From Flavobacteriales bacterium (GTDB lineage: Bacteria > Bacteroidota > Bacteroidia > Flavobacteriales_F > PHOS-HE28), in the NCBI GenBank assembly GCA_016721005.1, contig JADKJM010000019.1:323747-387746 (forward strand): a stretch of 64,000 nt of DNA. Reading direction: 5' to 3'. Positions 1-53,099 of the stretch are shown here, piece after piece. A program made the position numbers and the translations under genes. A model generated the notes under the pieces. The model saw only the letters and a program-made list of their open reading frames with translations. It had not been told where the DNA came from and ran no database searches. Numbering within the stretch: the first letter of the stretch is position 1; every line of letters begins with the position of its first letter.

Positions 1-3000
1 GAGATCATCATCGCATCGCTCGAGACCGCGCACGATCCGTTCGTGATGGTGGTGAGCGTCAACTGCACGCTACCCGAGGTGATGTCCGCACCACTCATCG
101 TGTAGGTCGCGTTTGGATCCGTGTTGTTGCTGAAGAAGCCAGAACCCGTGCTGCTCCACGTGATGCCCTGCGATCCGCCGCTGAAGTTGCCCGCGAGTTG
201 CGCGATCGGTGCATTCGCACAGAGCGCTTGGTCGGCGCCCGCGAACGCGTAGCTCGAGTTGCCGAACGTGATCACCATGGCGTCCTGCGTGCTCGGACAG
301 GTACCGGTGTTCGTCGCAGTGAGCGTGAGCACCACGGATCCGTTCGTCACATCCGCTGCGGAGAAGAAATACTGCGCGTTCAGGACATCAGCGTTCGGGC
401 TGAATGTGCCGGTGCCGGTGGATGTCCATGTACCGGAAGGTGATCCGTTCTGGATGCTACCCTGCAGGTTGGCTTGGCTCGAGAGCACGCACACGTTCTG
501 GTCCGGACCGGCGCTGGTAACAATGCCGTTCGTGAGATAGATGGTCATCGCATCGCTCACCGGATTGCAATTCGCGTTGTTCAGCGAGGTGAGCGTGAAG
601 GCGATCGATCCGTTCGCCACATCCGCGGCGCTGGCCGTGTAGGTCGTGTTCAACGAGCCCGCATTCGCGATCGTACCTGTACCGGTCGTGGTCCATTGGC
701 CCATGTTCGTGATGCCGGAGATCGTTCCGCTCAGGTTGAACTGCGTCACGGCATTGCAGAAGGTCTGATCAGCACCGGCGTTCACATACGGCGCCGGGGT
801 CAGCGTCAACAGCATCGCGTCCGTTGCGTTGTTACAGGTGTTCGGTGCGCTAAGGGTCAGCGTGAGGATGCCGATCGTGGTGTCGATCGCACTCGGCACA
901 TAGGTCGGCGTGAGCACGTTGGCGTTCGGGAAGAAGGAGCCCGTACCAGAGGTGGTCCACTGCACTTGCGTGGCGTCACCGCTCAGTGTTCCGTTGAGTT
1001 GCGTTACGCCGTTGTTCGCGCAAGCCGTCACATCAACGCCAGCGTTCACGGTGCCCGCAGGTTGGATCGCGATGAACATCGTGTCGATCGCCGCCTGGCA
1101 AACACCAGTACTCGTAGCGGTGAGTACCAAGTAGGCACCACCGGCGAGCTGGTCGTTCGCGCTCGCCTGGTACACGTTGCTCAGCGCCGTATTCGGGTTG
1201 GCGAAGGCGCCGCTACCCAAGGTGCTCCAAGTCCCGCTGCTCGACGCACCGTTCACCGACCCATTGATCACAATGTTCAGGTTGTTGTAGCAGGTCACTT
1301 GGTCCGCACCAGCACTGGCCACCGATGCAGGCGTGATCGTCAGCACCATCTGGTCCATCGCGTTGTCGCAACTGTTCACGCTCCAGGTGAAGGTGATCGT
1401 GCCTAGAGCAGGATCACCCGATGCGACCTGATACACCGCGTTGGCGTCCGCAGCATTCGGTAAGAAGCTACCAGTGCCCGTGCTGGTCCACTGGCCTTGG
1501 GTCGCATTGCCGGTGATCGTTCCGTTCATCTGGATCGTGTTCGTGGTGGAGCAGATGACTTGATCCACACCCGCGTCCGCGATCGCGTTCGGCAGAATGG
1601 TCACGGTCAGTACATCGCTCACGGCGTTGCACAGACCGTTGCTCGTCGAGGTCAACGTGAGGTCGACCGTACCGCTCAACGAATCGAGGCTGCTGGCGAT
1701 GTAGGTCGCGTTCAACGTGGATGCGGTCGGACTGAAGAGTCCAGTGCCGGTCGTACTCCATAGGCCTGTGGTCGCACCGCCTTGCACGGTTCCATTCAGC
1801 GGCACTTGCAATTGGTTCGAGCAAGTGATCACATCCGCACCCGCATTCACCACTGGTGAAGGCGTAACTGTGATCGTCACTTGGTCAGTCACAGCCAAGC
1901 AGTTGCCGTTTCCAGTGGTCGTGAGCGTGAGTTGCACGCTACCCGATCCCAGTTCGAAGTTGGATGGCGCGTATTGCGCATTCAGCGTTTGTGCGTTCGG
2001 CGTGTAAGTACCGAGGCCTCCACTCCATTGTGCACCCGTAGCCACAGTGATGGAGCCGTTGAGGTTCACCACCGGGTTGTTCATGCACACGTCCAGATCC
2101 GCTCCGGCATTCACCGTTGGAGCGGGTGTGAAGGTCACGACCATCGTATCGCGTACGGCAATGCAGTTGCCATTGCCCGTGCTCGTCAAGTAGAGGGACA
2201 GCGTGCCTGCCGCGAGTTCACCTGCGCTCGGCGTGTACACCGGGCTCAGCACGTTGCTGCTCGGCGCGAATGTTCCGCTGGCGCCTGTCCAAGTTCCACC
2301 ACTTGCGTTGGTGACGTTACCGGTGAGTTGGACCGCACTGTTGTTCGCGCAGATCTGCAGGTCGCTACCGGCGCTCACGATCGGCGCACCGGTGAAGATG
2401 ATCGTCATCTGGTCGGTCACCGCTGTGCAGTAAACCGTTCCTGTAGAAGACAAGGTCAGCGTGAGCGAACCAGCCGCGATCTCCGCTGCGGTCGGTGCGT
2501 ACTGCGTCGCCAGCATGGTGTTGCTCGGGAAGAAGGTTCCCGCACCACCGCTCCACGCGCCACCCGGCGCATTGCCGACGAAGCCGTTGAGTTGCACGTT
2601 CGAATTGTTCGCGCAGATCTGCTGATCCGGTCCGGCGTTCACCACAGGAACCGGATCCACGATCACCACCAGACTGTCGCGCACCACCGTGCAATTGCCG
2701 TTGCCCGTGGTGCTCAGGATCAGGTTGAATTGGCCCGATGCCATCTCCGCAGCCGTTGGCGCGTAGCTCGCATTCAGTGCCGCATTGCTCGGCGTGAACA
2801 GACCGGCGCCACCGCTCCATGCGCCACCGGTTGCCACGGTCACCGCACCATTCAGGTTCACTTGCGTGGTGTTCGCGCAGATGCGGATGTCCAACCCGGC
2901 ATTGGCCGTCGGCGCCGGAGTGAATTGCAATCGCACGGAGTCTGTTGTTGCGAGACAACCGCCGTTGCCGGTCGATGTGAGGAAGAGCCACGCCTGACCG

Positions 3001-6000
3001 CTCGCGATCTCCGCAGTGCTCGGTGTGTAGGATGCGTTCAATGCGCTCGAGTTCGGGCTGAAAGCGCCGGAGACGCCACTCCATGTTGCACCGGTAGCGT
3101 TCGTCACTTGACCTGCGAGTTGTGCGATCGGATTGTTCGCGCAGAGCACTTGGTTCACACCCGCTTCCACGATCGGCGCAGCCGTAATGGTCAATACCAC
3201 TTGCGAGGACACTGCATTGCACAAGCCATTCCCGGTGCTTGTGAGCGTGATCGTCGCCGCACCGGCAGCGATCTCCGCATTGCTTGGCGTATAGGTCGCG
3301 CTGAGGTTCGTGGCACTTGGCGTGAAGACTCCTGCACCGCTCCACATACCGCCGGTCGCGTTCTGCACCGATCCGGCCAATTGAGCAGAAGAATTGTTCG
3401 CGCAAGAGGTCAGCGGTGTGCCCGCGTTCACTATCGGTGATGGGTTGATGGTGATCATCACTTGGTCGGTGACCGGGTTACAAGTTCCATTGCCGACCGT
3501 TGTCAACGTGAGTGTCACTGTACCCGCGCTGATCTCCGAGGCGCTCGGCACATAGGTCGCGTTGAGCGTGCTGTTGTTCGGTGTGTAGCTGCCGTTGCCG
3601 CCGCTCCAGAGAGCACCAGTCGCAACGGTGATCGCACCATTCAACGTAACCGATGGGTTGTTCGCACAAGTGAAGAGATCCACACCGGCGTTGGCTGTCG
3701 GAGCAGGCGTGAAGGTGTAGCTCACGGCATCGCTCATCGCCGCGCAACCGTTGTTGCCCGTGGTGGTCAGGGTCAAGGTCACTTGTCCTGCGGCGAGTTC
3801 GCCAGCAGAAGGTGTGTACATAGCGTTCAGAGCGTTCGCATTCGGCGTGAATGTTCCACCAGCACCAGACCAGGTGCCGCCGTTTGCAACGGTGACAGTT
3901 CCGTTCAATTGGATGCTCGCATTGTTCGCGCAGCGCACGCCATCGCCACCAGCATTCGCGGTCGGCGATGCGGTGAAAGTGATGAGCACTTGATCGGACA
4001 CCGGAACGCAGTTGCCATTGCCGATCGTGGTCAGCGTCAGGGTCAAGGTGCCAGCGGTGATCTCTACAGCGGTGGGTGTGTAGATCGCGTTCAGCGATGC
4101 GATGCTCGGCGCAAAAGTGCCTGCACCACCGCTCCATTGGCCGCCACCGGCGCCGCTCACGGATCCACCGAGTTGGACTTGTGCGTTGTTCGAGCAGACC
4201 GCGATATCAGCGCCCGCATTCGCGCTCGGCGATGCGATGATGGTGATCACCATCTGGTCGCTCACTGCGTTGCACAAGCCATTACCTGTGGAAGTCAGGG
4301 TCAGCGTCGCAGTACCGAGGGCCACTTCAGCAGGGCTCGGATAGTAGCTCGCGTTGAGGGTGTTCGCGTTCGGCGTGTAGGTCCCGCCGCCGCCGCTCCA
4401 TACGCCACCGCTGGCGATGGTCACGGAACCGTTCAGGATCACCGTCGGATCGTTCGCGCACACCGTGCGATCGAGACCCGCGTTCACCACGGGGCTCTGC
4501 GAGAAGAAGATCACCATCTGATCGCTCACCGACAGGCAGCTACCGTTTCCGGTGCTGCTCAGTGTTAGCGTTACGGAACCGTTCGCGAGCTCCGAAGTGC
4601 TCGGCGTGTACACCGCGTTCAGTGTGTTGATGCTCGGCGAGAAGGTGCCCGTGCCGCCACTCCAGATGCCACCGCCCGCGTTGCTCACGGATCCGGCCAT
4701 TTGCACACTAGCGTTGTTGGCGCAGACCGTGCGGTCCACTCCCGCGTTCACCACCGGTGAAGGAGCAATGAAGATGACCATCTGATCGGAAACACCATTG
4801 CACAAGCCATTGCCGGTGCTGCTCAAGGTGAGCGTCACCATGCCCGCAGCAACTTCACCGAGTGTCGGTGTGTAGGTCGCGTTCAGGTTCGTGTTGCTCG
4901 GGTTGAAGGTGCCTGAACCGCCGCTCCAGATCCCGCCGGTCGCGTTGTTCACTACGCCAGCGAGCTGTGCTGTTGGTTGGTTCGCGCACACGGTGCGGTC
5001 AACTCCGGCGTTCGCGATCGGCGCAGGCGTGATGGTGATCACGATCTGATCGCTCACCGGATTGCTGTTCCCGTTGCCCACCGAGGTGAGTGTCAGCGTC
5101 ACCGTACCGGCCGCGCGTTCAGCAGCGCTTGGTGTATAGATCGCGTTCAGCGTGCTGTTGTTCGGATTGTACGTGCCCGTTCCGCCGCTCCAGATGCCGC
5201 CAGTGGCGATGGTGATCGCACCGTTCAACTGCACTGCAGGGTTGTTCGCGCAAACGGTTTGATCCGGTCCTGCATTCGCGGTCGGTGCTGCGCCAAAGAA
5301 GATCGTGATCTGATCGGTCGCTGGCGAGCAACTTGCGTTACCCGTGGTGATCAAGGTCAGCGTCACACTGCCCGCCGCGATCTCCGCAGGGGTCGGCGTG
5401 TACACTGCATTCATCGTGGTGTTATTCGGGCTGTAGGAACCCGCGCCACCGCTCCAGGTCGCACCGGTGGCGATGGAGAAGCTGCCCGCGAGCGTCGTGT
5501 TCGCGTTGTTCGAACTCACGGTCTGATCCGGACCCGCATTCGCCGTCGGCGCTTGCGTGTAGGTGATCACCATCGCATCGCTCACCGCCGCGCACGTGCC
5601 GTTGCCGGTCGTGGTCGCGGTGAGTGTTACCGATCCGTTCACGACTTCGATGGGCGAAGGTGAGTATGTGATGTTCTGTGCCGTGCTTCCTGGGCTATAC
5701 GAACCCGACCCACCGGACCATTGTACACCCGTAGCAACGGTGATCACCGCGTTCAATGTTGCGGTCGCATTGTTGCCGCAGACCGATTGATCAACACCGG
5801 CGTTCACCGTCGGTGCAGGCGTGATCGTGTAGGTCACGTTGTTCGTTACCGCATTGCACAAGCCATTGCCAGCAGAGGTCAGGGTCAGCGTCACCGTCCC
5901 GGCGGTGATCTCCGCAGCCGTCGGCGTGTAGGTCGCGTTCAGTGTGATGCTGTTCGGGCTGAAGGATCCTGCACCACCGCTCCACACGCCACCCGCAGCA

Positions 6001-9000
6001 CCGGTCACGGTACCGTTCAAGGAGATGGTCGCAGCGTTCGCGCAGACACTTCCATTCGCTCCGGCGTTCACGATCGGCGCAGGCGTATAGGTGATGATCT
6101 TGGTGGCAGTAGCGGGTGCGCAATTGCCGTTGCCCGTGGTGGTCAAGGTCAAGGTCACCTGTCCTGCGGCCAGATCACCGGCGCCGGGGTTGTAAGTCGC
6201 ATTGAGCGTATTCGCGTTCGGCGAGTACGTTCCCGTTCCACCGCTCCACACGCCGCCCGTTGCCACGATCACGCTGCCGCCGAGGGCAACTGCTGCGTTG
6301 TTCGCACAACGCGTCACGTTCGGACCAGCATTCGCAGAAGGCGGATCAGTGAAGGTCAAGAGCACTTGGTCGCTCACCGCATTGCACAAACCGTTGCCGG
6401 TGGTGGTGAGCGTGAGCGTCAAGCTTCCTGCTGCGATCTCCGCCGCCGTCGGCGTGTAGATCGCGCTCATGTTCGTCGTGCTTGGATCGAAGGTGCCCGC
6501 ACCGCCGCTCCAGATACCACCGGTAGCGATCGAGAATGCACCGGACAATCCGGTCGAAGCGTTGTTCGCGCAAAGCACACGGTCCGCACCGGCGTTCGCC
6601 GTCGGAGCAGGTGTGATGCTGTACGTCACCTGGGCGCTCACCGCATTGCAATTGCCGTTGCCCGTGGTGGTCAAGGTCAGTGTCACGGTGCCGGCGGCAC
6701 GTTCAGCCGCGCTTGGCGTGTACACCGCGTTCAGCGTGGCATTGTTCGGATTGTACGTGCCCGTTCCACCGCTCCAAGCAGCACCCGTGGCACCGGTGAT
6801 CGCACCAGCAAGCGCGATGTTCGCGTTGTTCGCGCACACCGTTCCGTTCGGTCCTGCATTCACGGTCGGCGCAGGCGTGAAGGTGATCAACTTGGTGTCC
6901 GATACTGCTGTGCAGTTCCCGTTGCCCGTGGTGGTCAGCGTCAACGTCAGTGTACCCAACGCGAGTTCCGCAGGCGTCGGCGTGTAGGTCGCGTTGAGCG
7001 TGGTGTTGTTCGGCGTGAATGATCCCGCACCACCGCTCCAGATCCCTCCAGTAGCAACTCCGACCGCACCATTCAGCGGAACGTTCGCGTTGTTGCGGCA
7101 CACGGATACATCCACACCGGCATCCACTGTCGGGCTCGGCGTGAAGCTGATCAACATCTGATCGCTCACTGCCACACAGTTGTTGTTGCCAGTTGTGGTC
7201 AACGTCAACGTCACGGAACCGTTCGAGAGCTCCGTCACCGTCGGCGTGTAGGTAGCGTTCATGTTCGTGGTGCCTGGGCTGAAAGTGCCCGCACCACCGC
7301 TCCACACACCACCGGTCGCGATCGTGAAGCCACCGTTCAAGGTGGTCGCCGAATTGTTCGCGCAACGCACTTGATCCACACCCGCGTTCACTGTCGGTGC
7401 AGGGGTGATCGAATAGGTCACGTTCGAGCTCACCGCATTGCAGTTACCGTTGCCGGCCGAGGTCAGCGTGAGCGTTACCGTTCCGGCGTTGCGTTCGGCA
7501 ACGGTCGGTTGGTAGGTCGCGTTGAGCGTGGTGTTGTTCGGCGTGAAGACACCGGCGCCACCGCTCCAGATCGCACCGCTCGCGCCACTCACCGATCCGT
7601 TCAAGGTGATCAATGAAGCGTTCGAGCAAACCGTCCCGTTCGGACCTGCGTTCACCACGGGAGCAGGAGTGAAGGTGATCGTGCGCGTGCTCGTGACGGC
7701 GTTGCAATTACCGTTGCCGGTGGTTGTCAAGGTCAGCGTCAGTGTTCCCGCTGCGAGTTCCGCAGGGGTCGGCGTATACACCGCGTTCAGCGTGGTGTTG
7801 TTCGGTGTGAAGGACCCCAGGCCACCGCTCCAGATACCGCCCGTGGCACCGGAAACCGAACCGGTCATCGTCACCTGCGGATTGTTCACGCAGATCGAGA
7901 TCGGAGCACCCGCGCTCGCAACAGGCGCTGGCGTGAAGCTGATCGTGACCTGATCGATAACAGCGATGCAGTTGTTGTTGCCGGTCGTTGTCAATGTGAG
8001 TGTGACAGAACCGGTCGCGATCTCAGCAGCCGTTGGCGTGTAGGTCGCATTCAGGTTCGTGGTGCTCGGTGCAAAAGTGCCTGCATCTCCGCTCCAAATT
8101 CCGCCCGTCGCAACGGTCACGCTGCCGGCAAGTGTTGCTACTGCATTGTTCGCGCAACGCGATTGGTTCGGACCCGCATTGGCTGTCGGAGCAGGCGTGA
8201 TCGAATAGGTAACGTTGCTCGATACCGCATTGCAATTACCATTGCCCACCGTGGTGAGCGTGAGCGTCACCGTACCCGCCGTACGTTCAGCAATGCTCGG
8301 CGTGTACACTGCGTTCAGCGTGGCGTTGTTCGGATTGTATGTGCCGGTTCCGCCGCTCCACACCGCGCCTGTTGCGCCGCTCTGTGAACCGGCCAAGGTG
8401 ATCGCGGAATTGTTCGCGCAGACGGTTCCATTCGGACCGGCGCTTACTGAAGGTGCAGGTGTGAACGAGATCACACGACTGCTCTGCACGGGGTTGCACA
8501 TGCCGTTGCCGGTGCTCGTCAGCGTCAAGGTCAAGGTGCCACCAGCGATCTCCGCTGCGGTCGGCGTGTAGGTCGCGTTGAGCGTTGTGTTGTTCGGATT
8601 GTAGGTACCCGTGCCACCGCTCCACACGCCACCGATCGCTCCGGAAACGCTGCCGTTCAAACTCACCTGTGCATTGTTCGCGCAGAGCGAAACGGGCGCA
8701 CCGGCGTTCACCACAGGTGCTGCGGTGAAGTTGATCACCATCTGATCGATCACGGCGACGCAGTTGCCGTTGCCGGTCGTCGTCAGCGTAAGCGTCACTG
8801 AACCATTCGCGATCTCAGCAGCGCTTGCTGTGTAGATCGCACTCATGTTCGTGGTGCTCGGATCGAAAGTTCCATTGCCGCCACTCCACACGCCGCCTGT
8901 CGCGACAGTGAAGGCGCCGCTCAGCGAGACCGCCGGATTGTTCGAGCAACGGGTCGCATCGGGACCCGCGTTCACCGTTGGTGTGGGCGTGATCGCATAG

Positions 9001-12000
9001 GTCACGTTCGCGCTCACCGCGTTGCAGTTCCCGTTGCCAACCGTCGTGAGCGTGAGGGTCACCGTGCCCGCCGCGCGTTCGGCAGCGGTCGGCGTGTAGA
9101 CCGCGTTCATGGTAGCGTTGTTCGGGTTGTAGCTGCCCGCGCCTCCGCTCCAGATCGCACCCGTTGCACCGGTGAAGGCACCGGCCAGCGTGATGTTCGA
9201 ATTGTTCGAGCACACGCTGCCGTTCGACCCAGCGCTCACCGTCGGTGCTGGCGTGAACGTGATCACGCGCGCACTGGAAACCGGATTGCAATTGCCGTTG
9301 CCCGTGCTCGTCAGCGTCAGTGTTACTGTGCCTGCGGCGAGATCGGAAGCGCTTGGCGTGTAGGTCGCGTTGAGCGTGGTGTTGTTCGGTGCGAAAGTGC
9401 CGGAACCGCCGGTCCATGCACCGCCCGTTGCGCCGAAGACACTGCCGTTCAAACTCACCTGAGCGTTGTTCGCGCAGAGCGAGATCGGCGCACCAGCGTT
9501 CACTGTGGGTGCATCGGTGATGCTGATCACCATCTGATCGGCTACTGCAGTGCAGGTGCCGTTGCCAGTGGTCGTCAACGTCAAGGTCACGATACCTGCG
9601 GTGATCTCCGCCGCGCTCGGTGTGTAGATCGCACCCATGTTCGTGGTGCTCGGATCGAAGGTGCCTGCACCACCGCTCCAGATACCTCCGGTAGCGATCG
9701 TGAAGGAACCGTTCAATGCAACGGTCGGATTGTTCGCGCACACCGTGCGATCGAGTCCGGCGTTGGCGGTCGGCGCAGGAGTGATCGTGAACGTCACCTG
9801 ATCATTCACCGCATTGCAATTGCCATTGCCTACCGTGGTGAGCGTGAGCGTCACCGTACCCGCTGCGCGTTCAGCAGCGCTCGGTGTGTACACCGCATTG
9901 GTGGTCGTGTTGTTCGGATTGTACGTACCCGTGCCGCCGCTCCAGATCACGCCGGTCGAAACCGTGAAGGCACCCGCCAAAGTGATCGCGGAGTTGTTCG
10001 CGCACACCGTTGCGTTCGGACCCGCATCCACCGTTGGTGCAGGTGTGAAGGTGATCACACGGCTGTCGGAAACAGCGGTGCAATTGCCGTTACCCGTGGT
10101 GGTCAACGTCAAAGTCAACGTGCCCGCAGCGAGTTCCGCGGGGGTCGGCGTGTAGGTCGCGTTAAGGTTCGTGTTGTTCGGCGTGAAGGAACCCGCGCCA
10201 CCGCTCCAGATCCCACCGGTCGCGATCGTCACCGATCCACCCATGGGCACGCTGGCGTTGTTGCGGCACAGCGTCAAGTCAGGACCTGCATTCGCCGTCG
10301 GACTTGCTGTGAAGTTCAACTGCACCTGATCCGTCACGGCGATGCACGTACCGTTACCGGTCGTGGTCAGCGTCAGCGTCACGTTGCCGTTCGCGATCTC
10401 CACGGCCGTCGGGGTGTAGGTCGCGCCCATGTTCGTGGTGCTCGGACTGTAGGAACCATTACCACCGCTCCAGACACCACCGGTCGCAACCGTGGAGGAG
10501 CCACTCAACGTGGCTACCGGGTTGTTGCTGCAAAGCGTTTGGTCCGGACCCGCATTCGTGGTCGGAGCAGGCGTGATCGTATAGGTCACACTCGACGCGA
10601 CCGCATTGCAATTGCCATTGCCCGCAGAAGTCAGGGTCAGCGTCACTGTACCGGCAGTGCGTTCAGCAGCGGTCGGTGTGTAGGTCGCATTCAGCGTGGT
10701 GTTGTTCGGGGTGTAAGTGCCACCGCCGCCGCTCCAGATCGCACCGGTCGCACCCGTAACAGATCCGTTCAAGCTGATCGTCGCGTTGTTCGTGCAAACA
10801 CTTCCATTCGGACCAGCGCTCACGATCGGCGAAGGCGTGAACGTGATCACCTTGTTGCTCATCACCGGATTGCAATTGCCATTGCCCGTGCTGGTCAAAG
10901 TCAACGTCAGTGTGCCACCCGCGATCTCCGCAGCGGTGGGCGCGTAGGTCGCAGTGAGTGTAGTGTTGTTCGGGTTGAAGGTGCCTGTGCCGCCGCTCCA
11001 AATGCCGCCGGTCGCACCGGAAACGGATCCACTCAAACTCACTTGCGCATTGTTCGCGCAGAGCGAGACCGCAACACCCGCATTCACCACGGGTGCATCG
11101 GTGATGAAGATCACCATCTGATCATTCACCGCCGTGCAGCTGCCGTTGCCGGTCGTCGTCAATGTCAACGTCGCGATACCCGCAGTGATCTCCGCCGCGC
11201 TCGGCGTGTAGACCGCCCCCATGTTCGTGGTGCTCGGATCGAAGGTGCCTGCGCCACCGCTCCAGATACCACCGGTAGCGATCGTGAAGGAACCGTTCAG
11301 TGCGACCGCTGCGTTGTTCGCGCACACCGTGCGATCGAGTCCGGCGTTGGCTGTTGGCGCAGGTGTGATCGTGAACGTCACCTGATCATTCACCGCATTG
11401 CAATTGCCATTGCCCACCGTGGTGAGCGCAAGCGTAACCGTACCCGCTGCGCGTTCTGCTGCGCTCGGCGTGTACACCGCGTTCATCGTGGTGTTGTTCG
11501 GGGTATACGTGCCCGCACCGCCGGTCCACTGGGCACCGGTTGAAACAGTGAACGCTCCGGCCAAAGTGATGGCGGAGTTGTTCGCGCACACCGATGCGTT
11601 CGGACCGGCATTCACAGTAGGAGATGGCGTGAACGTGATCAAGCGGCTATCGGCAACCGAATTGCAATTGCCGTTACCCGTGGTGGTCAATGTCAGCGTG
11701 AGCGTACCCGCAGCGAGTTCCGCCGGGGTCGGCGTGTAGGTCGCGTTGAGCGTGGTGTTGTTCGGCGTGAATGAACCGGCACCACCGCTCCAAATGCCGC
11801 CAGTTGCCACGGTCACCGATCCACCGAGTGCAATGCTTGCGTTGTTGCGACAGAGCGACAGGTCAGCACCGGCGTTGGCGGTCGGACTTGGCGCGAAGTT
11901 CAGTTGGACTTGATCGGTAACGGCGAGGCACGTGCCGTTGCCGGTCGTCGTCAAGATCAAGGTCACCGTGCCGCTCGCGATCTCCGCAGCGGTCGGCGTG

Positions 12001-15000
12001 TAGGTCGCGTTCAGGTTGGTGGTGCTCGGCGCGAACGTGCCCGCACCGCCGCTCCAGATGCCGCCCGTGGCGATCGTCACGCTTCCACCAAGTGAAGCCA
12101 CCGGGTTGTTGGTACACAGCGATTGATCCGCTCCTGCATTGGCTGTCGGAGCAGGCGTGATCGTCCAGGTCACGTTCGAGCTCACCGCATTGCAATTGCC
12201 GTTGCCTGCGGAGGTCAATGTCAGCGTTACCGTTCCAGCAGTGCGCTCGGCAGCAGTCGGCGTGTAGGTCGCATTGAGCGTGGTGTTGTTCGGGTTGTAA
12301 GTACCAGCACCACCGCTCCAAATGCCGCCGGTCGCACCGATCACGGATCCATTCAAGTTGATCGTTGCGTTGTTCGTACAAACGCTTCCGTTCGATCCAG
12401 CGCTCACGATCGGCGAAGGCGTGAACGTGATCACCTTGTTGCTCGCGACAGGATTACAGGCGCCATTGCCCGTGCTCGTCAATGTCAGCGTCAACGTGCC
12501 CGCCGCGATCTCCGCTGCGGTTGGCGTGTAGGTCGCGGTAAGTGTGGTGTTGTTCGGGTTGAAAGTGCCCGTGCCACCGCTCCAGATGCCACCGGTCGCA
12601 CCCGTAACAGATCCACTCAAACTCACTTGCGCATTGTTCGCGCAGAGCGAAACAGCAATGCCTGCATTCACAACAGGTGCCGCCGTGAAGGCGATCACCA
12701 TCTGATCAGCAACAGCGATGCAACCACCATTGCCAGTGGTCGTCATGGTCAGCGTCACCGTACCGCTGGAGATCTCACCAGCGGTCGGCGTGTACTGCGC
12801 ACCCATGTTCGTGGTGCTCGGATCGAAGGACCCTGCGCCACCGCTCCAGATGCCGCCTGTCGCTACCGTGAACGAACCGTTCAAAGTGACCACCGCGTTG
12901 TTCGCGCATACCGTGCGATCCACACCGGCGTTCGCTGTCGGTGCAGGCGAAATGGTGAAGGTCACCTGATCGCTCATCGCATTGCAATTGCCGTTGCCCA
13001 CCGTGGTGAGCGTCAGCGTTACCGTACCGGCAGTGCGCTCAGCAGCACTTGGCGTGTACACCGCATTCAGTGTAGTGTTGTTCGGAGCGTAAGTGCCCGT
13101 GCCGCCGCTCCAGGCCGCGCCTGTCGCCACGGTGATCGCGCCCGCAAGCGTGATGGCCGAGTTGTTCGCGCATACCGTCGCGTTCGGACCTGCATCAACC
13201 GTCGGAGCCGGAGTGATCGTGATCACTTTGCTGCTCGATACTGCCGTGCAATTACCGTTGCCGGTGGAAGTCAGTGTCAATGTCACCGTACCCGCCGCGA
13301 TCTCCGCAGCGCTCGGTGTGTAGGTCGCGTTCAACGTAGTCGCGTTCGGGTTGAATGAACCCGTGCCGCCGCTCCATGCGCCGCCCGTTGCACCGGTCAC
13401 ACTACCATTCAAAGCGACCTGAACGTTGTTCGCGCAAACCGGAACAGCAACTCCTGCGCTTACAACAGGCGCAGGCGTGAAGGTCAAGAGAACTTGATCG
13501 GTCACCGCTATGCAGCCACCGTTGCCGGTAGTGGTCAACGTCAGCGTCACTGATCCGCTGGAGATCTCTCCCGGGGTGGGCGTGTACTGCGCGCCCACGT
13601 TCGTGGTGCTCGGATCAAAAGACCCCGCGCCACCGCTCCACACACCACCTGTCGCAACCGTGAACGATCCGTTCAAGGTGGCCACTGCGTTGTTCGCGCA
13701 AAGTGTTTGGTCGAGCCCCGCGTTCGTTGTCGGTGCGGGTGTGATCGCGTAGGTCACGCTCGCGCTGACCGCATTGCAATTGCCATTGCCCACCGTGGTG
13801 AGCGTCAGCGTCACCGTACCTGCCGTGCGTTCCGCAGCGCTCGGCGTGTACACCGCGTTCATCGTGGTGGTGTTCGGGTTGTACGATCCCGTGCCGCCAC
13901 TCCAAACCGCACCTGTCGCGAGTGTGAAAGAACCCGCCAAGGTGATATCCGCGTTGTTCGCGCAAACACTTCCGTTCGCTCCGGCATTCACCGTAGGGGC
14001 TGCCGTGAAGCTGATGACCTTGTTGCTCGTGACGGGCAAGCAGTTGCCATTGCCTGTGCTGCTCAACGTGAGCGTTAACGTGCCCGCCGCGATCTCTGCA
14101 GCAGTTGGTGTGTAGGTCGCATTCAGCGTGGTGTTGTTCGGTGCGTATGAACCAGCACCGCCGCTCCAAGCCCCACCGGTTGCGCCGGTGACCGAACCGC
14201 TCAGCGTGACAACCGCATTATTCGCGCAGAGCGAAACCGCAGCGCCTGCATTCACGACTGGTGCTGCCGTGAAGTTGATGAGCACCTGATCGTTGACCGC
14301 AACGCAATTCCCGTTGCCTGTCGTGGTCATCGTCAAGGTCACCGAGCCGCTGGCGACCTCCGCAGCAGTGGGTGTGTATTGCGCCGACATGTTCGTCGTG
14401 CTGGGGTCGAAGGAGCCCGCACCACCGCTCCACACACCACCTGTGGCCACCGTGAACGATCCGTTCAACTGCACCACCGCGTTGTTCGCACAGCGCGTTT
14501 GGTCAGGACCTGCGTTCGCAGTGGGTGAAGGCGTGAACGTCACCAGCATGCTGTCCGCGACGGCCGCGCACACACCGTTACCGGTGGAGGTCAGCTTGAT
14601 CCACATTTGTCCGGCGGTGAGGTTTGCGGCAGTCGGCGTGTAGGTCGCGTTCAGGTTGCTGTTGCTTGGCAGAAAGGTGCCACCACCGCCAGTCCACACT
14701 CCACCAACTGCGTTCAACATGGTGCCTGCCAACTGCACCACGGAGTTGTTCCGACAAACGTTCTGGTCCGGTCCAGCGTTGGGGATCGGTTTCGGACTGA
14801 AGGTGACCACCATCGCGTCGTTGGCTGGTGTGCACGGACCTGTGGAGGTCAGGGTAAGGGTCACGCTGCCGATAGCGAGATCACCGATGCTCGGGTGGTA
14901 GGTCGCGTTCAGCGCCGTTGCACTTGGCATGAAGGTTCCGCTGCCGGTTGTTGTCCAGATACCCGTAGTGCTTCCTCCGGAAACCGTACCAGCCAAAAGC

Positions 15001-15060
15001 ACGGTGTCACCTGCACAGCGCGTTTGATCAGCGCCTGCATTCACGTTGATCTGCCCGGCG
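1..15060. repeat. Coding tandem repeat array, unit ~264 bp (88 aa), ~57 units, divergent (roughly 40-90% identity between units)
   Basis: Recurring wrong-frame peptide signatures (e.g. QLPLPVVVSVSVTVPAA…SAAVGV) at ~264-bp spacing through the whole interval, and direct minus-strand translation. Confidence 0.75.
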
Positions 15061-16439
15061 AATTCCGAGAAGAAGCCGTAGCGGCATCCGCTCGTTGCGC
15101 CGCCGTTGATGATGGCGAGCGAGAACACATCCGTGGTGTTCGAAACGATGAATGCTTGGTTCACCGGCACCTGCGTGGTGTTGTACTGGATCCGCGCGGC
15201 CATCCAAACCCCACCTGTGCCAGGTACCGTTTGGAACGCCGCACCCGGTATCGTTGCCGTACCGGGTGTTACCACGAAATTGTTCTGTGATCCGTTCCTG
15301 ACCAGGATATTCAGGAAGAAGGATTCGCTTGTACTTCGCGTGAAGCTGAGTTGCGTGCTTCCCGCGCAATTCAGCGGAGGCAGGATCGCCATGCCCTGCT
15401 CGCAACCGAAACCGGTGACATGTATGGCGTACAACGGCTTGGAGCCGGTGACCAACGTGGCGTTGTTCGCCGCGCCAGCCAGATAGTCCATGTCGTGGCG
15501 GTAGTACTGGCCAGCGAAGAGCGTGGCCACAGGAACCGGGTTACCATCGATATAGACCTGCGTGTTGTTCTGCACGGCCATCACGAAGAGAGATTCGTCG
15601 CCGGTGTTGTTCAGCGCACCCTTCACCGCCACGTACTCGGTGCCCAGAATGTTCACCGGAACGATCTGATCGAGCATCAGGTCATAGCAACCGCCCGAGG
15701 GGTTGTGGTTCGAATCGTCCTTGATCGAAACCGCGACCGGCTTGTCTGAAAGCACGACCGCTCCCGAAGGGTGCGTCAAAGGGTCGGTGTGTGTCGCCGG
15801 CACCGTGTTCGCCGTGGAGTAGGTCTGGCCCTGGTTCAGGATGATGGTCCACGGAACGAGCGCGCCATGACCATCCACCGCCACGGGCGAATAGATCATC
15901 ACCGTGGTGTTGTTCTGGGTCGCAACGATATCGAACGAAGCGAACGCGAGGTCGGCATTGTTCGGTGAGAAATTGTGATTCGCGAAAGGCGTGTGCTTGT
16001 GTAGCGGGATGTAGAATTCGGTGCCCAAGCCGTTGGCACCCTTCAGCGCCATGATGTCCGGGTTGTTCGTGTTGCTGCTCTCGTAGTAGCAAGTGATGTT
16101 GGCCGTGGATTGGATCCGAAGACCCGTGTTGCGAATGCTGTTCGTCGGGCGGGTCTCCAACTGGACCTTCAGCGCCGTCATGTTGTAGCGGACGGCCGAG
16201 TTTGCCGCCACATTGATCACGATGGGTGAGCCGCCGTTGAATCCGGCGTTCGCTGGCTGCGAGACCGTTACGGTCGCAGCCGCGTTGCCAGAAGTGACGT
16301 TGAGGTAGATCGGCTCATCCCCCGGCGTATTGTGGTAATACGTCACGTCGGGCGGAGCCATCCAGAACTCGGTTCCGGTCTGTGCGTGCAGGATCCCGGC
16401 CAGGACCACCGCAAGCACCAAGAGGAGTGCCTTTTTCAT
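1..16439 (-). CDS. Giant secreted cell-surface adhesin-like protein, partial (>5,470 codons in window). Signal peptide, ~450-aa N-terminal non-repeat domain, then ~57 tandem ~88-aa Ig-like beta-sandwich repeats (recurring NAG-x-DQ-x-x-C ... L-x-G-S ... GG-x-WSGG-x-G ... Y-T-P-[ST]-A-A-E ... G-N-G-x-C motifs). C-terminus, probably a T9SS/gliding-type sorting domain, lies beyond the window start.
   Basis: ATG at 16439..16437 (minus) followed by MKKALLLVLAVVLAGILHAQ (signal peptide). Hand translation of the minus strand gives protein-like repeats at the N-terminal end and at the window edge (…TLTTITNGSCAVSSDAMMI from 59..3) in the same phase (position mod 3 = 2). No minus-strand ORF in that phase is listed anywhere in 1..16439, which is expected only if the frame is stop-free for ~5,479 codons and runs off the edge. 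All listed ORFs in the interval are R/G/H-rich other-frame products. Confidence 0.8.
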   Translation of the reverse strand, partial: MKKALLLVLAVVLAGILHAQTGTEFWMAPPDVTYYHNTPGDEPIYLNVTSGNAAATVTVSQPANAGFNGGSPIVINVAANSAVRYNMTALKVQLETRPTNSIRNTGLRIQSTANITCYYESSNTNNPDIMALKGANGLGTEFYIPLHKHTPFANHNFSPNNADLAFASFDIVATQNNTTVMIYSPVAVDGHGALVPWTIILNQGQTYSTANTVPATHTDPLTHPSGAVVLSDKPVAVSIKDDSNHNPSGGCYDLMLDQIVPVNILGTEYVAVKGALNNTGDESLFVMAVQNNTQVYIDGNPVPVATLFAGQYYRHDMDYLAGAANNATLVTGSKPLYAIHVTGFGCEQGMAILPPLNCAGSTQLSFTRSTSESFFLNILVRNGSQNNFVVTPGTATIPGAAFQTVPGTGGVWMAARIQYNTTQVPVNQAFIVSNTTDVFSLAIINGGATSGCRYGFFSEFAGQINVNAGADQTRCAGDTVLLAGTVSGGSTTGIWTTTGSGTFMPSATALNATYHPSIGDLAIGSVTLTLTSTGPCTPANDAMVVTFSPKPIPNAGPDQNVCRNNSVVQLAGTMLNAVGGVWTGGGGTFLPSNSNLNATYTPTAANLTAGQMWIKLTSTGNGVCAAVADSMLVTFTPSPTANAGPDQTRCANNAVVQLNGSFTVATGGVWSGGAGSFDPSTTNMSAQYTPTAAEVASGSVTLTMTTTGNGNCVAVNDQVLINFTAAPVVNAGAAVSLCANNAVVTLSGSVTGATGGAWSGGAGSYAPNNTTLNATYTPTAAEIAAGTLTLTLSSTGNGNCLPVTSNKVISFTAAPTVNAGANGSVCANNADITLAGSFTLATGAVWSGGTGSYNPNTTTMNAVYTPSAAERTAGTVTLTLTTVGNGNCNAVSASVTYAITPAPTTNAGLDQTLCANNAVATLNGSFTVATGGVWSGGAGSFDPSTTNVGAQYTPTPGEISSGSVTLTLTTTGNGGCIAVTDQVLLTFTPAPVVSAGVAVPVCANNVQVALNGSVTGATGGAWSGGTGSFNPNATTLNATYTPSAAEIAAGTVTLTLTSTGNGNCTAVSSSKVITITPAPTVDAGPNATVCANNSAITLAGAITVATGAAWSGGTGTYAPNNTTLNAVYTPSAAERTAGTVTLTLTTVGNGNCNAMSDQVTFTISPAPTANAGVDRTVCANNAVVTLNGSFTVATGGIWSGGAGSFDPSTTNMGAQYTPTAGEISSGTVTLTMTTTGNGGCIAVADQMVIAFTAAPVVNAGIAVSLCANNAQVSLSGSVTGATGGIWSGGTGTFNPNNTTLTATYTPTAAEIAAGTLTLTLTSTGNGACNPVASNKVITFTPSPIVSAGSNGSVCTNNATINLNGSVIGATGGIWSGGAGTYNPNNTTLNATYTPTAAERTAGTVTLTLTSAGNGNCNAVSSNVTWTITPAPTANAGADQSLCTNNPVASLGGSVTIATGGIWSGGAGTFAPSTTNLNATYTPTAAEIASGTVTLILTTTGNGTCLAVTDQVQLNFAPSPTANAGADLSLCRNNASIALGGSVTVATGGIWSGGAGSFTPNNTTLNATYTPTPAELAAGTLTLTLTTTGNGNCNSVADSRLITFTPSPTVNAGPNASVCANNSAITLAGAFTVSTGAQWTGGAGTYTPNNTTMNAVYTPSAAERAAGTVTLALTTVGNGNCNAVNDQVTFTITPAPTANAGLDRTVCANNAAVALNGSFTIATGGIWSGGAGTFDPSTTNMGAVYTPSAAEITAGIATLTLTTTGNGSCTAVNDQMVIFITDAPVVNAGVAVSLCANNAQVSLSGSVSGATGGIWSGGTGTFNPNNTTLTATYAPTAAEIAGGTLTLTLTSTGNGNCNPVMSNKVITFTPSPIVSAGPNGSVCTNNATISLNGSVTGATGAIWSGGGGTYTPNNTTLNATYTPTAAERTAGTVTLTLTSAGNGNCNAVASSVTYTITPAPTTNAGPDQTLCSNNPVATLSGSSTVATGGVWSGGNGSYSPSTTNMGATYTPTAVEIANGNVTLTLTTTGNGTCIAVTDQVQLNFTASPTANAGPDLTLCRNNASVPMGGSVTIATGGIWSGGAGSFTPNNTNLNATYTPTPAELAAGTLTLTLTTTGNGNCTAVSDSRVITFTPAPTVDAGPNATVCANNSAITLAGAFTVSTGVIWSGGTGTYNPNNTTTNAVYTPSAAERAAGTVTLTLTTVGNGNCNAVNDQVTFTITPAPTANAGLDRTVCANNPTVALNGSFTIATGGIWSGGAGTFDPSTTNMGAIYTPSAAEITAGIVTLTLTTTGNGTCTAVADQMVISITDAPTVNAGAPISLCANNAQVSLNGSVFGATGGAWTGGSGTFAPNNTTLNATYTPSASDLAAGTVTLTLTSTGNGNCNPVSSARVITFTPAPTVSAGSNGSVCSNNSNITLAGAFTGATGAIWSGGAGSYNPNNATMNAVYTPTAAERAAGTVTLTLTTVGNGNCNAVSANVTYAITPTPTVNAGPDATRCSNNPAVSLSGAFTVATGGVWSGGNGTFDPSTTNMSAIYTASAAEIANGSVTLTLTTTGNGNCVAVIDQMVINFTAAPVVNAGAPVSLCANNAQVSLNGSVSGAIGGVWSGGTGTYNPNNTTLNATYTPTAAEIAGGTLTLTLTSTGNGMCNPVQSSRVISFTPAPSVSAGPNGTVCANNSAITLAGSQSGATGAVWSGGTGTYNPNNATLNAVYTPSIAERTAGTVTLTLTTVGNGNCNAVSSNVTYSITPAPTANAGPNQSRCANNAVATLAGSVTVATGGIWSGDAGTFAPSTTNLNATYTPTAAEIATGSVTLTLTTTGNNNCIAVIDQVTISFTPAPVASAGAPISICVNNPQVTMTGSVSGATGGIWSGGLGSFTPNNTTLNAVYTPTPAELAAGTLTLTLTTTGNGNCNAVTSTRTITFTPAPVVNAGPNGTVCSNASLITLNGSVSGASGAIWSGGAGVFTPNNTTLNATYQPTVAERNAGTVTLTLTSAGNGNCNAVSSNVTYSITPAPTVNAGVDQVRCANNSATTLNGGFTIATGGVWSGGAGTFSPGTTNMNATYTPTVTELSNGSVTLTLTTTGNNNCVAVSDQMLISFTPSPTVDAGVDVSVCRNNANVPLNGAVGVATGGIWSGGAGSFTPNNTTLNATYTPTPAELALGTLTLTLTTTGNGNCTAVSDTKLITFTPAPTVNAGPNGTVCANNANIALAGAITGATGAAWSGGTGTYNPNNATLNAVYTPSAAERAAGTVTLTLTTTGNGNCNAVSAQVTYSITPAPTANAGADRVLCANNASTGLSGAFSIATGGIWSGGAGTFDPSTTNMSAIYTPTAAEIAAGSLTLTLTTTGNGLCNAVSDQVLLTFTDPPSANAGPNVTRCANNAAVALGGSVIVATGGVWSGGTGTYSPNANTLNATYNPGAGDLAAGQVTLTLTTTGNGNCAPATATKIITYTPAPIVNAGANGSVCANAATISLNGTVTGAAGGVWSGGAGSFSPNSITLNATYTPTAAEITAGTVTLTLTSAGNGLCNAVTNNVTYTITPAPTVNAGVDQSVCGNNATATLNAVITVATGVQWSGGSGSYSPGSTAQNITYSPSPIEVVNGSVTLTATTTGNGTCAAVSDAMVITYTQAPTANAGPDQTVSSNNANTTLAGSFSIATGATWSGGAGSYSPNNTTMNAVYTPTPAEIAAGSVTLTLITTGNASCSPATDQITIFFGAAPTANAGPDQTVCANNPAVQLNGAITIATGGIWSGGTGTYNPNNSTLNAIYTPSAAERAAGTVTLTLTSVGNGNSNPVSDQIVITITPAPIANAGVDRTVCANQPTAQLAGVVNNATGGIWSGGSGTFNPSNTNLNATYTPTLGEVAAGMVTLTLSSTGNGLCNGVSDQMVIFIAPSPVVNAGVDRTVCANNASVQMAGSVSNAGGGIWSGGTGTFSPSINTLNAVYTPSTSELANGSVTLTLSSTGNGSCLSVSDQMVIFFSQSPVVNAGLDRTVCANDPTVILNGSVTIASGGVWSGGGGTYTPNANTLNASYYPSPAEVALGTATLTLTSTGNGLCNAVSDQMVITIIASPSANAGADIAVCSNNAQVQLGGSVSGAGGGQWSGGAGTFAPSIASLNAIYTPTAVEITAGTLTLTLTTIGNGNCVPVSDQVLITFTASPTANAGGDGVRCANNASIQLNGTVTVANGGTWSGAGGTFTPNANALNAMYTPSAGELAAGQVTLTLTTTGNNGCAAMSDAVSYTFTPAPTANAGVDLFTCANNPSVTLNGAITVATGALWSGGNGSYTPNNSTLNATYVPSASEISAGTVTLTLTTVGNGTCNPVTDQVMITINPSPIVNAGTPLTSCANNSSAQLAGSVQNATGGMWSGAGVFTPSATNLSATYTPSNAEIAAGAATITLTSTGNGLCNAVSSQVVLTITAAPIVEAGVNQVLCANNPIAQLAGQVTNATGATWSGVSGAFSPNSSALNASYTPSTAEIASGQAWLFLTSTGNGGCLATTDSVRLQFTPAPTANAGLDIRICANTTQVNLNGAVTVATGGAWSGGAGLFTPSNAALNASYAPTAAEMASGQFNLILSTTGNGNCTVVRDSLVVIVDPVPVVNAGPDQQICANNSNVQLNGFVGNAPGGAWSGGAGTFFPSNTMLATQYAPTAAEIAAGSLTLTLSSTGTVYCTAVTDQMTIIFTGAPIVSAGSDLQICANNSAVQLTGNVTNASGGTWTGASGTFAPSSNVLSPVYTPSAGELAAGTLSLYLTSTGNGNCIAVRDTMVVTFTPAPTVNAGADLDVCMNNPVVNLNGSITVATGAQWSGGLGTYTPNAQTLNAQYAPSNFELGSGSVQLTLTTTGNGNCLAVTDQVTITVTPSPVVNAGADVITCSNQLQVPLNGTVQGGATTGLWSTTGTGLFSPTASTLNATYIASSLDSLSGTVDLTLTSTSNGLCNAVSDVLTVTILPNAIADAGVDQVICSTTNTIQMNGTITGNATQGQWTSTGTGSFLPNAADANAVYQVASGDPALGTITFTWSVNSCDNAMDQMVLTITPASVASAGADQVTCYNNLNIVINGSVNGASSSGTWSTLGSGAFANPNTALSNVYQASANDQLAGGAYLVLTATSTGVCQAAIDTMFIAIQPAGTVNAGVDVTACANNGVTQLNGTLSGDATQVQWTTSGTGSFFPNANVLTPTYVPSAIDTTIGILTLTLSAPNTCNNATDAMLLTLTPAPYVNAGADQTFCNAVTQFNLSGTISGITNMGQWTTTGTGTIANAGSLNTTYTASAADVANGSIAFTLTSLNNANCNPVSDAMTIYLTNGIVTSAGPDQNVCVLSSQANLQGSIQNGSPSGTWTSTGTGTFSPNADVLNAQYFFSAADVTNGSVVLTLTATNTGTCPSTQDAMVITFGNSSYAFAGADQALCANAPIAQLAGNFSGGSQGITWSSTGSGFFSNNTDPNATYTMSGADITSGSVQLTLTTITNGSCAVSSDAMMI
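5800..14250. repeat. Higher-order tandem repeat: a 792-bp unit (three consecutive ~88-aa domains, A-B-C) repeated ~10-11 times with high inter-copy identity (about 85-95%)
   Basis: Near-identical translated segments recur at multiples of ~792 bp. Examples: the MQLPLPTVVSVSVTVPAARSAALGVYTA… ORFs at 9814, 11398 and 13774 (spacings 1584 and 2376 bp); DPFKLIVALFVQTLPF at ~10768 and ~12352 (1584 bp apart) with a DPFKVINEAFEQTVPF relative at ~7594; related copies near 6650 and 8230. Boundaries are approximate. Confidence 0.65.
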
Positions 16440-16642
16440 ACCAGTAGGTTCAAGTCGGTCCATGAGTAGTGGACCGGGTCCGTTCTACGCAGAACCGATC
16501 TCGGGGTTCGTTCGTCGAGAAAAGTCGGCCATTGGTCGGGCGTTCCGCCTCGGGGGCGAGTCGTCGCGCCAAGTGCGATACTGGCACACGGTCCGATCGC
16601 CACCCCCGTACTTTGGCGCAGCCCTTGCGACCGACGCGCTCC

Positions 16643-39682: not shown

Positions 39683-39711
39683 CTCGATCGCGTTCTACGC
39701 TCGAAGCCCGA

Positions 39712-42066: not shown

Positions 42067-42146
42067 CACGTTCGGTTCAAGGGTTCGGGCACGCGTTCAA
42101 CGCCAAATCGGGCCGATCCGTATGGGCCAAGGTAGATCCGGGAAGG

Positions 42147-46262: not shown

Positions 46263-46321
46263 AAAACCCGCTGCGGTCCACTCGGCTAATTTCGCCGACC
46301 TCACGGCTGACCCGTGGTTCG

Positions 46322-47329: not shown

Positions 47330-47363
47330 TCGACCTACCTTGCCTTCCAACCCAAGCTCGCCC

Positions 47364-52664: not shown

Positions 52665-53099
52665 ATGGCTGCTATTGAAGAGCTGGCGTTCACCGAGCGG
52701 ATCGACTTCCCCGCGAAAGCAGAGAACATCGCATTGGCGGAAAAGCTGATCGATGAAGCCTGTTCGCGTTATGGCGTTCACGAGAGCCTCTATGGCAACA
52801 TTCTTATCGCCCTCACCGAGGCAGTGAATAACGCGATCCACCATGGCAACGCGCTTGATCCAACAAAAACAGTCACCCTTGGTTATGAGGTGAAGGATGA
52901 TCGGATCGTGTTCATGGTCCAGGACCAAGGCGCTGGATTTGACTTCAACCACCTCCCCGACCCTACGGACCCGCAGAACCTGGAAAAGCCGCATGGTCGT
53001 GGGGTTTTCCTGATGCGGGCGCTGGCGGACTCCATTGAGTTCCGCGACAATGGCGCAACGGTGGCCCTTGCTTTTAGCAGGCAGCCCGTCACGGATTGA
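52665..53099 (+). CDS. Anti-sigma regulatory factor-like ATP-binding protein (RsbW/SpoIIAB-type HATPase serine-protein kinase)
   Basis: 144 aa; …NILIALTEAVNNAIHHGN (N-box), …VQDQGAGFDF (G1-box), …HGRGVFLMRALADSIEF (G2-box region). Confidence 0.7.
   Translation: MAAIEELAFTERIDFPAKAENIALAEKLIDEACSRYGVHESLYGNILIALTEAVNNAIHHGNALDPTKTVTLGYEVKDDRIVFMVQDQGAGFDFNHLPDPTDPQNLEKPHGRGVFLMRALADSIEFRDNGATVALAFSRQPVTD

Follow-up and report, generated by a model that had tools for sequence, protein, structure and literature searches.

A single stop-free frame on the minus strand occupies the first quarter of a 64,000-nucleotide stretch of contig JADKJM010000019.1 (assembly GCA_016721005.1, positions 323,747 to 387,746), from an uncultured member of the Flavobacteriales. 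This raises the question of whether so long a frame is a genuine gene and, if so, what kind of protein it encodes, where that protein acts and how its synthesis is controlled. The whole stretch is referred to here as the window, and all coordinates are positions within it. The first 16.4 kb very probably encode the N-terminal 89% of a ~6,200-residue cell-surface fibre protein, and the evidence supports a real, conserved gene of a known kind, that of a giant surface adhesin secreted via a type IX secretion system (T9SS).

An intact gene for a giant protein

The minus-strand frame is open from position 1 to an in-frame stop at 16485-16487, a run of 5,494 codons that bears out the initial annotation, in which a stop-free frame over this part of the window was reported. 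All other frames of window positions 1-16487 are interrupted every few dozen codons; the local base composition predicts one stop per ~33 codons, which puts the probability of an open run this long arising by chance at ~1e-74. The best start is the ATG at 16439, from which the frame encodes MKKALLLVLAVVLAGILHAQ followed by TGTEFW, a beginning shared by about 50 homologues. The resulting partial coding sequence (1..16439, minus strand; 5,479 codons) specifies 5,479 residues in the window (539 kDa, isoelectric point 4.05); its C-terminus is cut at position 1, and its predicted full length is ~6,180 residues.

Repetitive genes are often misassembled, and the homologous genes of several relatives in nanopore-only assemblies are frameshifted (L001, L002/L004, L007, and L032), so that an array wrongly expanded by the assembler, or a decaying pseudogene that has lost expression, has to be considered. 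The existing data already contradict this explanation, which we regard as extremely improbable. Adjoining repeat units share only ~63% DNA identity and the closest pair 89%, which makes collapse or expansion during assembly unlikely. No in-frame stop occurs within 1..16439, one of the points on which the initial annotation had made its reading depend. The closest genome found, a Flavobacteriales metagenome-assembled genome (JADJKO010000008.1, locus L008; head domain 98% identical at the protein level), is collinear with the window over exactly 15,206 bases in each, at 89% DNA identity, with the units matching one for one in order and length. Over 3,611 aligned codons of this pair, the ratio of non-synonymous to synonymous substitution rates (dN/dS) is 0.088 (0.05 in the head and 0.09 in the repeats), indicating that the gene is under strong purifying selection. 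Furthermore, more than 20 independent assemblies each carry at least 38 in-frame units, which fill all of the sequence fetched for them.

C-terminal architecture and the proposed route to the surface

The end of the protein lies beyond the window and can be read from its orthologues, in which both the C-terminal architecture and the partner gene are directly observed; a 49-mer taken at the window edge had no exact match in two public collections, one of genome contigs and one of metagenome contigs. An ungapped alignment at 77% identity joins the final 349 residues in the window to residues 1-349 of P0122, a 1,050-residue orthologue fragment. The 701 residues of P0122 past this match consist of about five further units, a pair of PKD domains, and a T9SS sorting domain of type B (TIGR04131, 42.8 bits vs. 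a cutoff of 35); it is this extension past the aligned end that yields the predicted full length of ~6,180 residues. The next gene encodes a PorP/SprF family protein (TIGR03519, 152.5 bits vs. a cutoff of 90.55) and is followed by an ATP synthase operon on the opposite strand; an 89%-related contig (L002/L004) has the same gene end and the same neighbors. CHU_C is found in L001, L004, L005, and L007, and CHU_C followed by PorP_SprF is annotated in L001 and L007. Orthologue C-termini thus comprise PKD domains and TIGR04131 or PF13585, followed by a TIGR03519 PorP/SprF gene. With tblastn among the methods used, PorP/SprF was located after the gene end in 14 of 17 related loci with a visible end; the remaining three are the distant loci L064 and L066, and L057, which is cut by the contig end. 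The sorting domain and PorP/SprF partner that the initial annotation had placed outside the window are therefore both present in orthologues.

The window also provides evidence of the secretion machinery. A gene at 39712..42069 (minus strand) encodes PorZ, a type IX secretion component (NF052228 T9SS_PorZ, 605 bits vs. a cutoff of 260; PF21544), from which it follows that the host has a T9SS, and two proteins with the type-A sorting signature (Por_Secre_tail) are encoded at 44703-46262 and 47340-49136. Secretion of type-B cargo requires a PorP/SprF protein encoded immediately downstream, to which the cargo stays bound at the cell surface (PMC9143113; PMC12618676). Together, the TIGR04131/PF13585 ends of the orthologues, their PorP/SprF neighbors, and PorZ in the window support the original proposal of a T9SS-secreted giant surface protein.

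As a separate observation on the two type-A cargo genes, both contain PKD domains and, across 44703-49136, flank a family-2 glycosyltransferase gene; the pair lies a few kilobases from porZ, beyond a glutamyl-tRNA synthetase gene.

Signal peptide and N-terminal head

The protein begins, as first described, with a signal peptide and a non-repeat N-terminal domain of ~450 residues. The Sec signal peptide, MKKALLLVLAVVLAGILHAQ (16380..16439, minus strand), was read from the sequence, with cleavage predicted before a conserved Gln, and the junction A-Q|T/S-G-T-E/D-F-W is kept in almost all homologues. In Bacteroidota, the 'Q-rule' describes formation of pyroglutamate after cleavage by signal peptidase I. 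An N-terminal Sec signal peptide is expected of type-B cargo, and is recognized here as MKKALLLVLAVVLAGILHAQ|TG from the sequence and its conservation among homologues.

Residues 21-465 (15045..16379, minus strand) form an all-beta head domain that includes Pfam PF17517 (IgGFc_binding) on residues 136-421, at 118 bits vs. a gathering cutoff of 25.6. The head is a single conserved non-repeat module, all 445 residues of which can be aligned across homologues, and an AlphaFold model built from 60 sequences is all-beta and of high confidence (predicted local distance difference test score, pLDDT, 94; predicted template-modeling score, pTM, 0.93). No informative structural relative of this model was found, and no ligand-binding fold was recognized in it. 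Of all parts of the protein, the head shows the strongest conservation (dN/dS 0.05; 72-98% identity within the clade), a constraint that fits a specific binding role, and it also occurs on short proteins that carry a sorting domain alone.

Two proteins of ~700 residues (P0079 and P0084) have the head at 51-54% identity and are labeled as Dokdonella and Tahibacter (Gammaproteobacteria); if their binning is right, the head would occur outside Bacteroidota.

Structure and evolution of the repeat array

The remainder of the in-window protein is an array of tandem 88-residue units (3..15047, minus strand; residues 465-5479). A profile built from the units finds exactly 57 of them, of which nearly all have 88 residues and the last is truncated at the window edge, so that the ~57 repeats of ~88 residues counted originally stand. 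The recurring motifs listed at that time are also all in the unit consensus (NAGxDxxxCANN, GGxWSGG, YTPxAAE, and GNGNC), with the qualification that AGxDQ is found only in every third unit of the central array. Invariant or near-invariant unit positions include the starting AG, one Trp, one Tyr, and two Cys. Thr, Ala, Gly, and Asn are abundant in the repeat region, which is nearly uncharged (K 0.2%, R 0.8%, E 0.9%).

Both conserved Cys residues, Cys17 and Cys79 of the unit model, are present in 55 of the 57 units. The sole single-Cys units, 37 and 38, adjoin one another (5268-5828, minus strand; residues 3631-3806), unit 37 having no N-terminal Cys and unit 38 no C-terminal Cys. If an intra-unit disulfide is the norm, this would leave two unpaired Cys residues in neighboring domains.

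Three zones can be distinguished in the array: units 1-2 next to the head, units 3 to ~35 organized as a super-repeat, and units 36-57, which are individually distinct. The central array of 3-unit and 6-unit super-repeats (units 3-35; 5814..14525, minus strand; residues 639-3542) varies in length between species, and its periodicity is evident from protein identity between units, which rises from 59% at lag 1 to 70% at lag 3 and 75% at lag 6. At the membrane-proximal end, units 51-57 (3..1856, minus strand) are of a diverged 'GxWTTTGTGxF' type with profile scores of 46-74 bits; they are one-to-one orthologous across the clade, at 77-83% identity to P0121, P0122, and P0164. The differences between close relatives and the window are 6-unit blocks in the central zone or much shorter central arrays, and units 34-57 have one-to-one orthologues in relatives; thus, stalk length appears to evolve by gain and loss of central blocks. 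Across the family, the number of units ranges from 10 to ~71.

Identity and distribution of the repeat unit

The initial annotation could not place the repeat family with confidence, and searches of Pfam and NCBIfam with any part of the array indeed return no model above threshold. Matches to RNase_PH_C and DUF6791 on the repeats are summed-score matches with no significant single stretch, and were rejected as repeat artefacts. The best match in the PKD superfamily is between the unit consensus and PF22352 (K319L-like PKD), a full-length alignment that scores 21.4 bits vs. a cutoff of 27. The consensus does not reach the gathering score of any of the superfamily models PF00801, PF18911, and PF22352, and real array segments do not match them. 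Foldseek comparison of a unit model with the PDB gives weak cadherin-type matches (template-modeling score ~0.5), which is no more specific than immunoglobulin (Ig)-like. On the basis of predicted fold and the sub-threshold PF22352 profile match, we place the units as putative divergent PKD-like Ig domains. They differ from PKD domains (PF22352; KIAA0319L/AAVR and ColH PKD) in this sub-threshold score and in having two conserved Cys residues and a GGxWSGG motif, both absent from the PKD signature.

The unit is widespread. A profile search of 1.84 billion cluster representatives retrieved 8,172 proteins at E<=1e-3 and 1,996 at E<=1e-30, and many of these repeat-bearing proteins are 3,000-7,000 residues long. 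One of them, P0233 (6,625 residues), has 67 copies of the 88-residue unit behind an unrelated Cys-rich N-terminal region. On account of its different head, P0233 was rejected as a full-length orthologue and belongs to a separate family with the same repeat; a different head on the same unit suggests that the repeat is a general stalk module shared by several families of giant proteins. By eye, the tail of P0233 resembles a type-B sorting domain.

The predicted fibre and its relation to SprB

These features suggest the following path for the protein. Sec would export it, the signal peptide being cut before the conserved Gln, and it would then cross the outer membrane through the T9SS by means of a type-B C-terminal sorting domain. 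This domain would pass the protein to its cognate PorP/SprF outer-membrane protein, encoded by the next gene, which would hold the C-terminus at the surface. Approximately 62 PKD-like Ig domains, each probably with one disulfide, would constitute a long, acidic, nearly uncharged stalk, of ~0.25 micrometres if each domain contributes ~4 nm (our own estimate), and the 445-residue all-beta head would be displayed distally as a binding tip. The stalk would lengthen or shorten as blocks of three or six units are gained or lost in the central array.

Several points weigh against reading the protein as a surface adhesin. The sorting domain and PorP/SprF gene of this copy would lie beyond the window, and we infer them, as well as its own C-terminus and surface anchoring, from relatives that are 77-83% identical. 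The disulfides and the length of the stalk are predictions, as is the transcription start of the gene. Literature searches on the bacterial IgGFc_binding domain returned nothing relevant, and no ligand or binding activity was found in them; adhesion by the head is proposed solely from the architecture and by analogy.

The nearest described counterpart is SprB, the gliding adhesin of Flavobacterium johnsoniae, whose partner is SprF. Like the window protein, SprB is a giant repetitive rod (about 6,500 residues), and, as with SprB, the orthologues of the window gene have a type-B sorting domain and a PorP/SprF gene immediately downstream, with no adjacent PorE-like gene. The differences are equally evident. 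SprB repeats (PF13573) have no match in the 5,479 residues or in the unit consensus, even at E<=10, the stalk of the window protein being made of PKD-like 88-residue units, and its IgGFc_binding head has no equivalent in SprB. The SprB operon has the composition sprC-sprD-sprB-sprF, whereas neither sprC nor sprD lies upstream of the window gene; a divergent histidine kinase gene occupies that position, and no gene upstream runs in the same direction. Given the absence of SprB repeats and the presence of a divergent kinase in place of sprC/sprD, the giant protein does not qualify as a member of the SprB family. The initial description of it as SprB-like consequently holds by analogy, as a giant T9SS type-B surface protein, and fails as a family assignment.

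The window protein instead belongs, by sequence, to the family annotated as 'IgGFc-binding protein' or 'gliding motility-associated C-terminal domain-containing protein' in Flavobacteriales (such as P0064, 1,137 residues, and P0081), members of which have the same head and the same repeat type, then PKD and CHU_C. P0064-like members have ~5-10 units, in contrast to ~40-71 in the window protein and its clade. No experimental characterization of any member of this family was found in the literature.

Whether such a fibre would be fixed, moved along the cell, or not adhesive at all can be weighed from the same features. A neighboring PorE-like gene is associated with static anchoring, and its absence with movement on the gliding track: in F. 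johnsoniae, cargo proteins with no PorE-like gene in the operon (SprB, Fjoh_4750, as well as Fjoh_1123) are mobile, and those with a PorE-like neighbor are static (PMC9143113; PMC12618676). There is no PorE-like gene after PorP/SprF in L001, L003, L004, and L007, and no gene of PorE-comparable size after it in the other loci, so that by analogy the question of mobile vs. static leans towards mobile. A refinement of the surface-adhesin reading can therefore be entertained, in which the protein is a mobile gliding adhesin analogous to SprB, loaded onto the gliding track by PorP/SprF to move the cell. The size and rod architecture that it shares with SprB favor this, but it has neither the SprB repeats nor the sprC/sprD genes, and the PorE rule derives from a handful of proteins of one species; we consider the proposal plausible, with the odds against it. 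Less probable still, and in our view unlikely, is a non-adhesive coat or spacer, whereby a dense layer of long, uncharged fibres would repel phages, predators, or cells, or shape flocs, with a head that has no ligand. The very low charge and Thr/Ala/Gly/Asn-rich composition of the repeat region would suit a coat, as would a stalk that varies from 10 to ~71 units between lineages and a head with no recognized ligand-binding fold. However, a coat would not readily account for the conservation of the head, the highest in the protein and in keeping with a specific interaction, or for the same head on short proteins with only a sorting domain. A giant surface adhesin remains the preferred interpretation.

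A conserved leader with a candidate promoter and hairpin

The 70 bases upstream of the giant-gene ATG (16440-16509, minus strand) are conserved and contain elements that are newly noted in this analysis. The first is a candidate promoter of the extracytoplasmic function (ECF) sigma type, GAACC-N15-CGTA (16486..16509, minus strand), the -10-like box of which ends 46 nt upstream of the ATG. AAC and CGT are what we take to be the signature of ECF-sigma promoters. Of 53 distinct leaders, 45 contain the pattern [GAT]AAC-N16-18-CGTA, located 23-65 nt upstream of the start, compared with 0.5% of control 90-mers, and the pattern is kept in distant low-GC family members, with differing spacers. Within a single window the pattern is not significant (two matches vs. 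0.86 expected), so that the evidence comes from conservation across loci. No published SigP promoter consensus was found in the literature for comparison with the leader.

The second element is a conserved hairpin at 16456..16476 (minus strand), 17-37 nt upstream of the ATG, with stem CGGTCC/GGACCG and loop ACTACTCAT (alignment A3). In the giant-gene clade, the loop is conserved as ACYACTCAT, 87.8% of cells in the stem alignment are paired, and five of the six pairs are changed on both sides; none of 500 shuffles reaches the observed covariation score, a control that overstates significance in that the sequences are related. A covariance model of the hairpin finds one copy per locus, always at the same position, and none elsewhere in 1.16 Mb. 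Rfam gives no match at the gathering threshold in the window, and none at E<=1 in 16380-16660.

The divergent kinase gene has a different element, a TACTTTGG box (16609..16616, plus strand) 27 nt upstream of its ATG. This box, kept in 80% or more of the 27 intergenic regions aligned, is a candidate for a Bacteroidota -7 promoter element; TAnnTTTG is presumably the Bacteroidota -7 promoter consensus. With a TACTTTGG box of its own, the kinase gene would use a separate promoter of a different type from that of the giant gene.

The giant gene would be transcribed from the ECF-sigma-type promoter. With a start just after CGTA, the hairpin would be at the 5' end of a ~19-kb transcript; use of this promoter in the host is a prediction from the conserved pattern. 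Speculatively, a 5'-end position would suit mRNA protection or the recruitment of a factor.

A one-mismatch copy of the leader -10-region box, CGTAGAACGC, lies at 39690-39699 (minus strand), between recO and porZ and 8 nt upstream of the recO start. At the stringency of CGTAGAACGC, five leader-box matches were found vs. 3.6 expected by chance.

The divergent sensor kinase

The gene that is divergently transcribed from the giant gene encodes a multi-pass sensor histidine kinase of 1,210 residues (16643..20275, plus strand). It has HATPase_c (85 bits), weak HisKA, HAMP, and Cache matches, and many membrane spans; in NCBIfam, there are sub-cutoff AtoS/ZraS-like matches only. Its ATG at 16643 is 203 bp from the giant gene, in agreement with the ~200 bp divergent arrangement reported at the outset. 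No response regulator, ECF sigma factor, PorX homologue, or SigP homologue is present among the window open reading frames scanned.

A sensor/adhesin pairing had been proposed from this arrangement. We consider the pairing suggestive but unproven. Of 61 species-representative loci, ~36, all from one clade of head sequences, have a kinase homologue on the opposite strand no more than 10 kb upstream, and this conserved adjacency has been eroded in a subclade where the giant gene persists. An early view that the pairing was not conserved, based on four loci (L001, L005, L006, and L007), was overturned by this 61-locus scan.

In a functional version of the pairing, the kinase would sense a signal from the envelope or the cell surface and regulate the giant gene, perhaps by way of an ECF sigma factor. 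A precedent is the PorY-PorX-SigP system of Porphyromonas gingivalis, in which an orphan sensor kinase is reported to act through an ECF sigma factor on T9SS genes (PMC4800418); here, likewise, an orphan kinase adjoins a gene with an ECF-type promoter candidate. The likeness is one of gene position, and the window kinase differs in its 1,210 residues and many membrane spans, and in having no PorX or SigP homologue among the scanned open reading frames. The adjacency persists although the kinase has drifted to 40-58% identity, compared with 72-98% for the head, and two of four distant kinase homologues (26-30% identity) lie beside unrelated type-B cargo genes: in L069 (7001-16011), the kinase gene (30% identity) overlaps the beginning of that for an unrelated CHU_C protein of 1,435 residues, which PorP_SprF follows, and in L070 (7001-17747), 1.8 kb and a PolX-like gene separate the kinase (28% identity) from a CHU_C protein longer than 2,108 residues. 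However, the loci with the adjacent kinase also retain, on its far side, a housekeeping gene for enoyl-CoA hydratase, so that inherited gene order may be all there is to the adjacency. Moreover, one to three genes are inserted between kinase and giant gene in ~7 loci; the subclade of L005, L026, and L031, together with L052, keeps the giant gene with no kinase in the 5.7-10 kb of upstream sequence covered; in L071, the kinase (a 43% homologue) and hydratase genes are present and the giant gene is not; and the distant homologues in L072 and L073 have no adjacent cargo. In addition, the promoters of the two genes are separate, of different types, and ~100 bp apart, and the window open reading frames scanned include no response regulator or sigma factor through which the kinase would act. 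Control of the giant gene by the kinase is thus a tentative proposal that we would not favor at present. More doubtful again is the wider possibility of a dedicated, so far undescribed control module for the giant adhesin family; such a module would combine the ECF-type promoter, the clade-specific 5' hairpin (with an invariant ACYACTCAT loop, and possibly serving to recruit factors or to stabilize the ~19-kb transcript), and, as upstream sensor, the multi-pass kinase, whose family recurs near type-B T9SS cargo genes.

Other genes upstream of the giant gene vary between loci. In L040 (6243-9877), a LuxR-type response regulator and a 1,001-residue sensor, regulator-propeller-like by eye only, are directly upstream in the same orientation, and the usual kinase homologue is displaced by ~7 kb. 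In one subclade, a pair of secreted-protein genes (~230 and ~420 residues) is just upstream of the giant gene (L028, 6319-8347; L033, 7751-9761; L005, 5704-7684); in L005, the pair has no Pfam hits on record, and the kinase is not within 8 kb. Elsewhere in the window, at 52665-53099, a small HATPase_c_2 protein (144 residues), which resembles anti-sigma-factor serine kinases, is encoded between a 1,138-residue DUF4175 protein and ybeY; no partner sigma factor or antagonist gene was seen near it.

Significance

Giant type-B T9SS adhesins determine attachment, gliding, and floc building in Bacteroidota, and essentially only SprB has been studied. The family to which the window gene belongs is large and conserved in Flavobacteriales, and is known solely from metagenome-assembled genomes. 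The points worth recording are the uncurated PKD-like stalk repeat, the modeled head that has no solved relative, and the promoter-plus-hairpin leader with its unproven kinase neighbor. For the head, whose fold is modeled with confidence, neither a solved relative nor a bacterial ligand is known. No curated model exists for the stalk repeat, which is present in over 8,000 protein clusters; annotation of these proteins consequently goes by the head alone or stops at 'hypothetical', and a domain model for the repeat would allow thousands of them to be better annotated. The leader's conserved promoter and hairpin, together with the recurrent kinase neighbor, offer testable handles on how very long genes are regulated.

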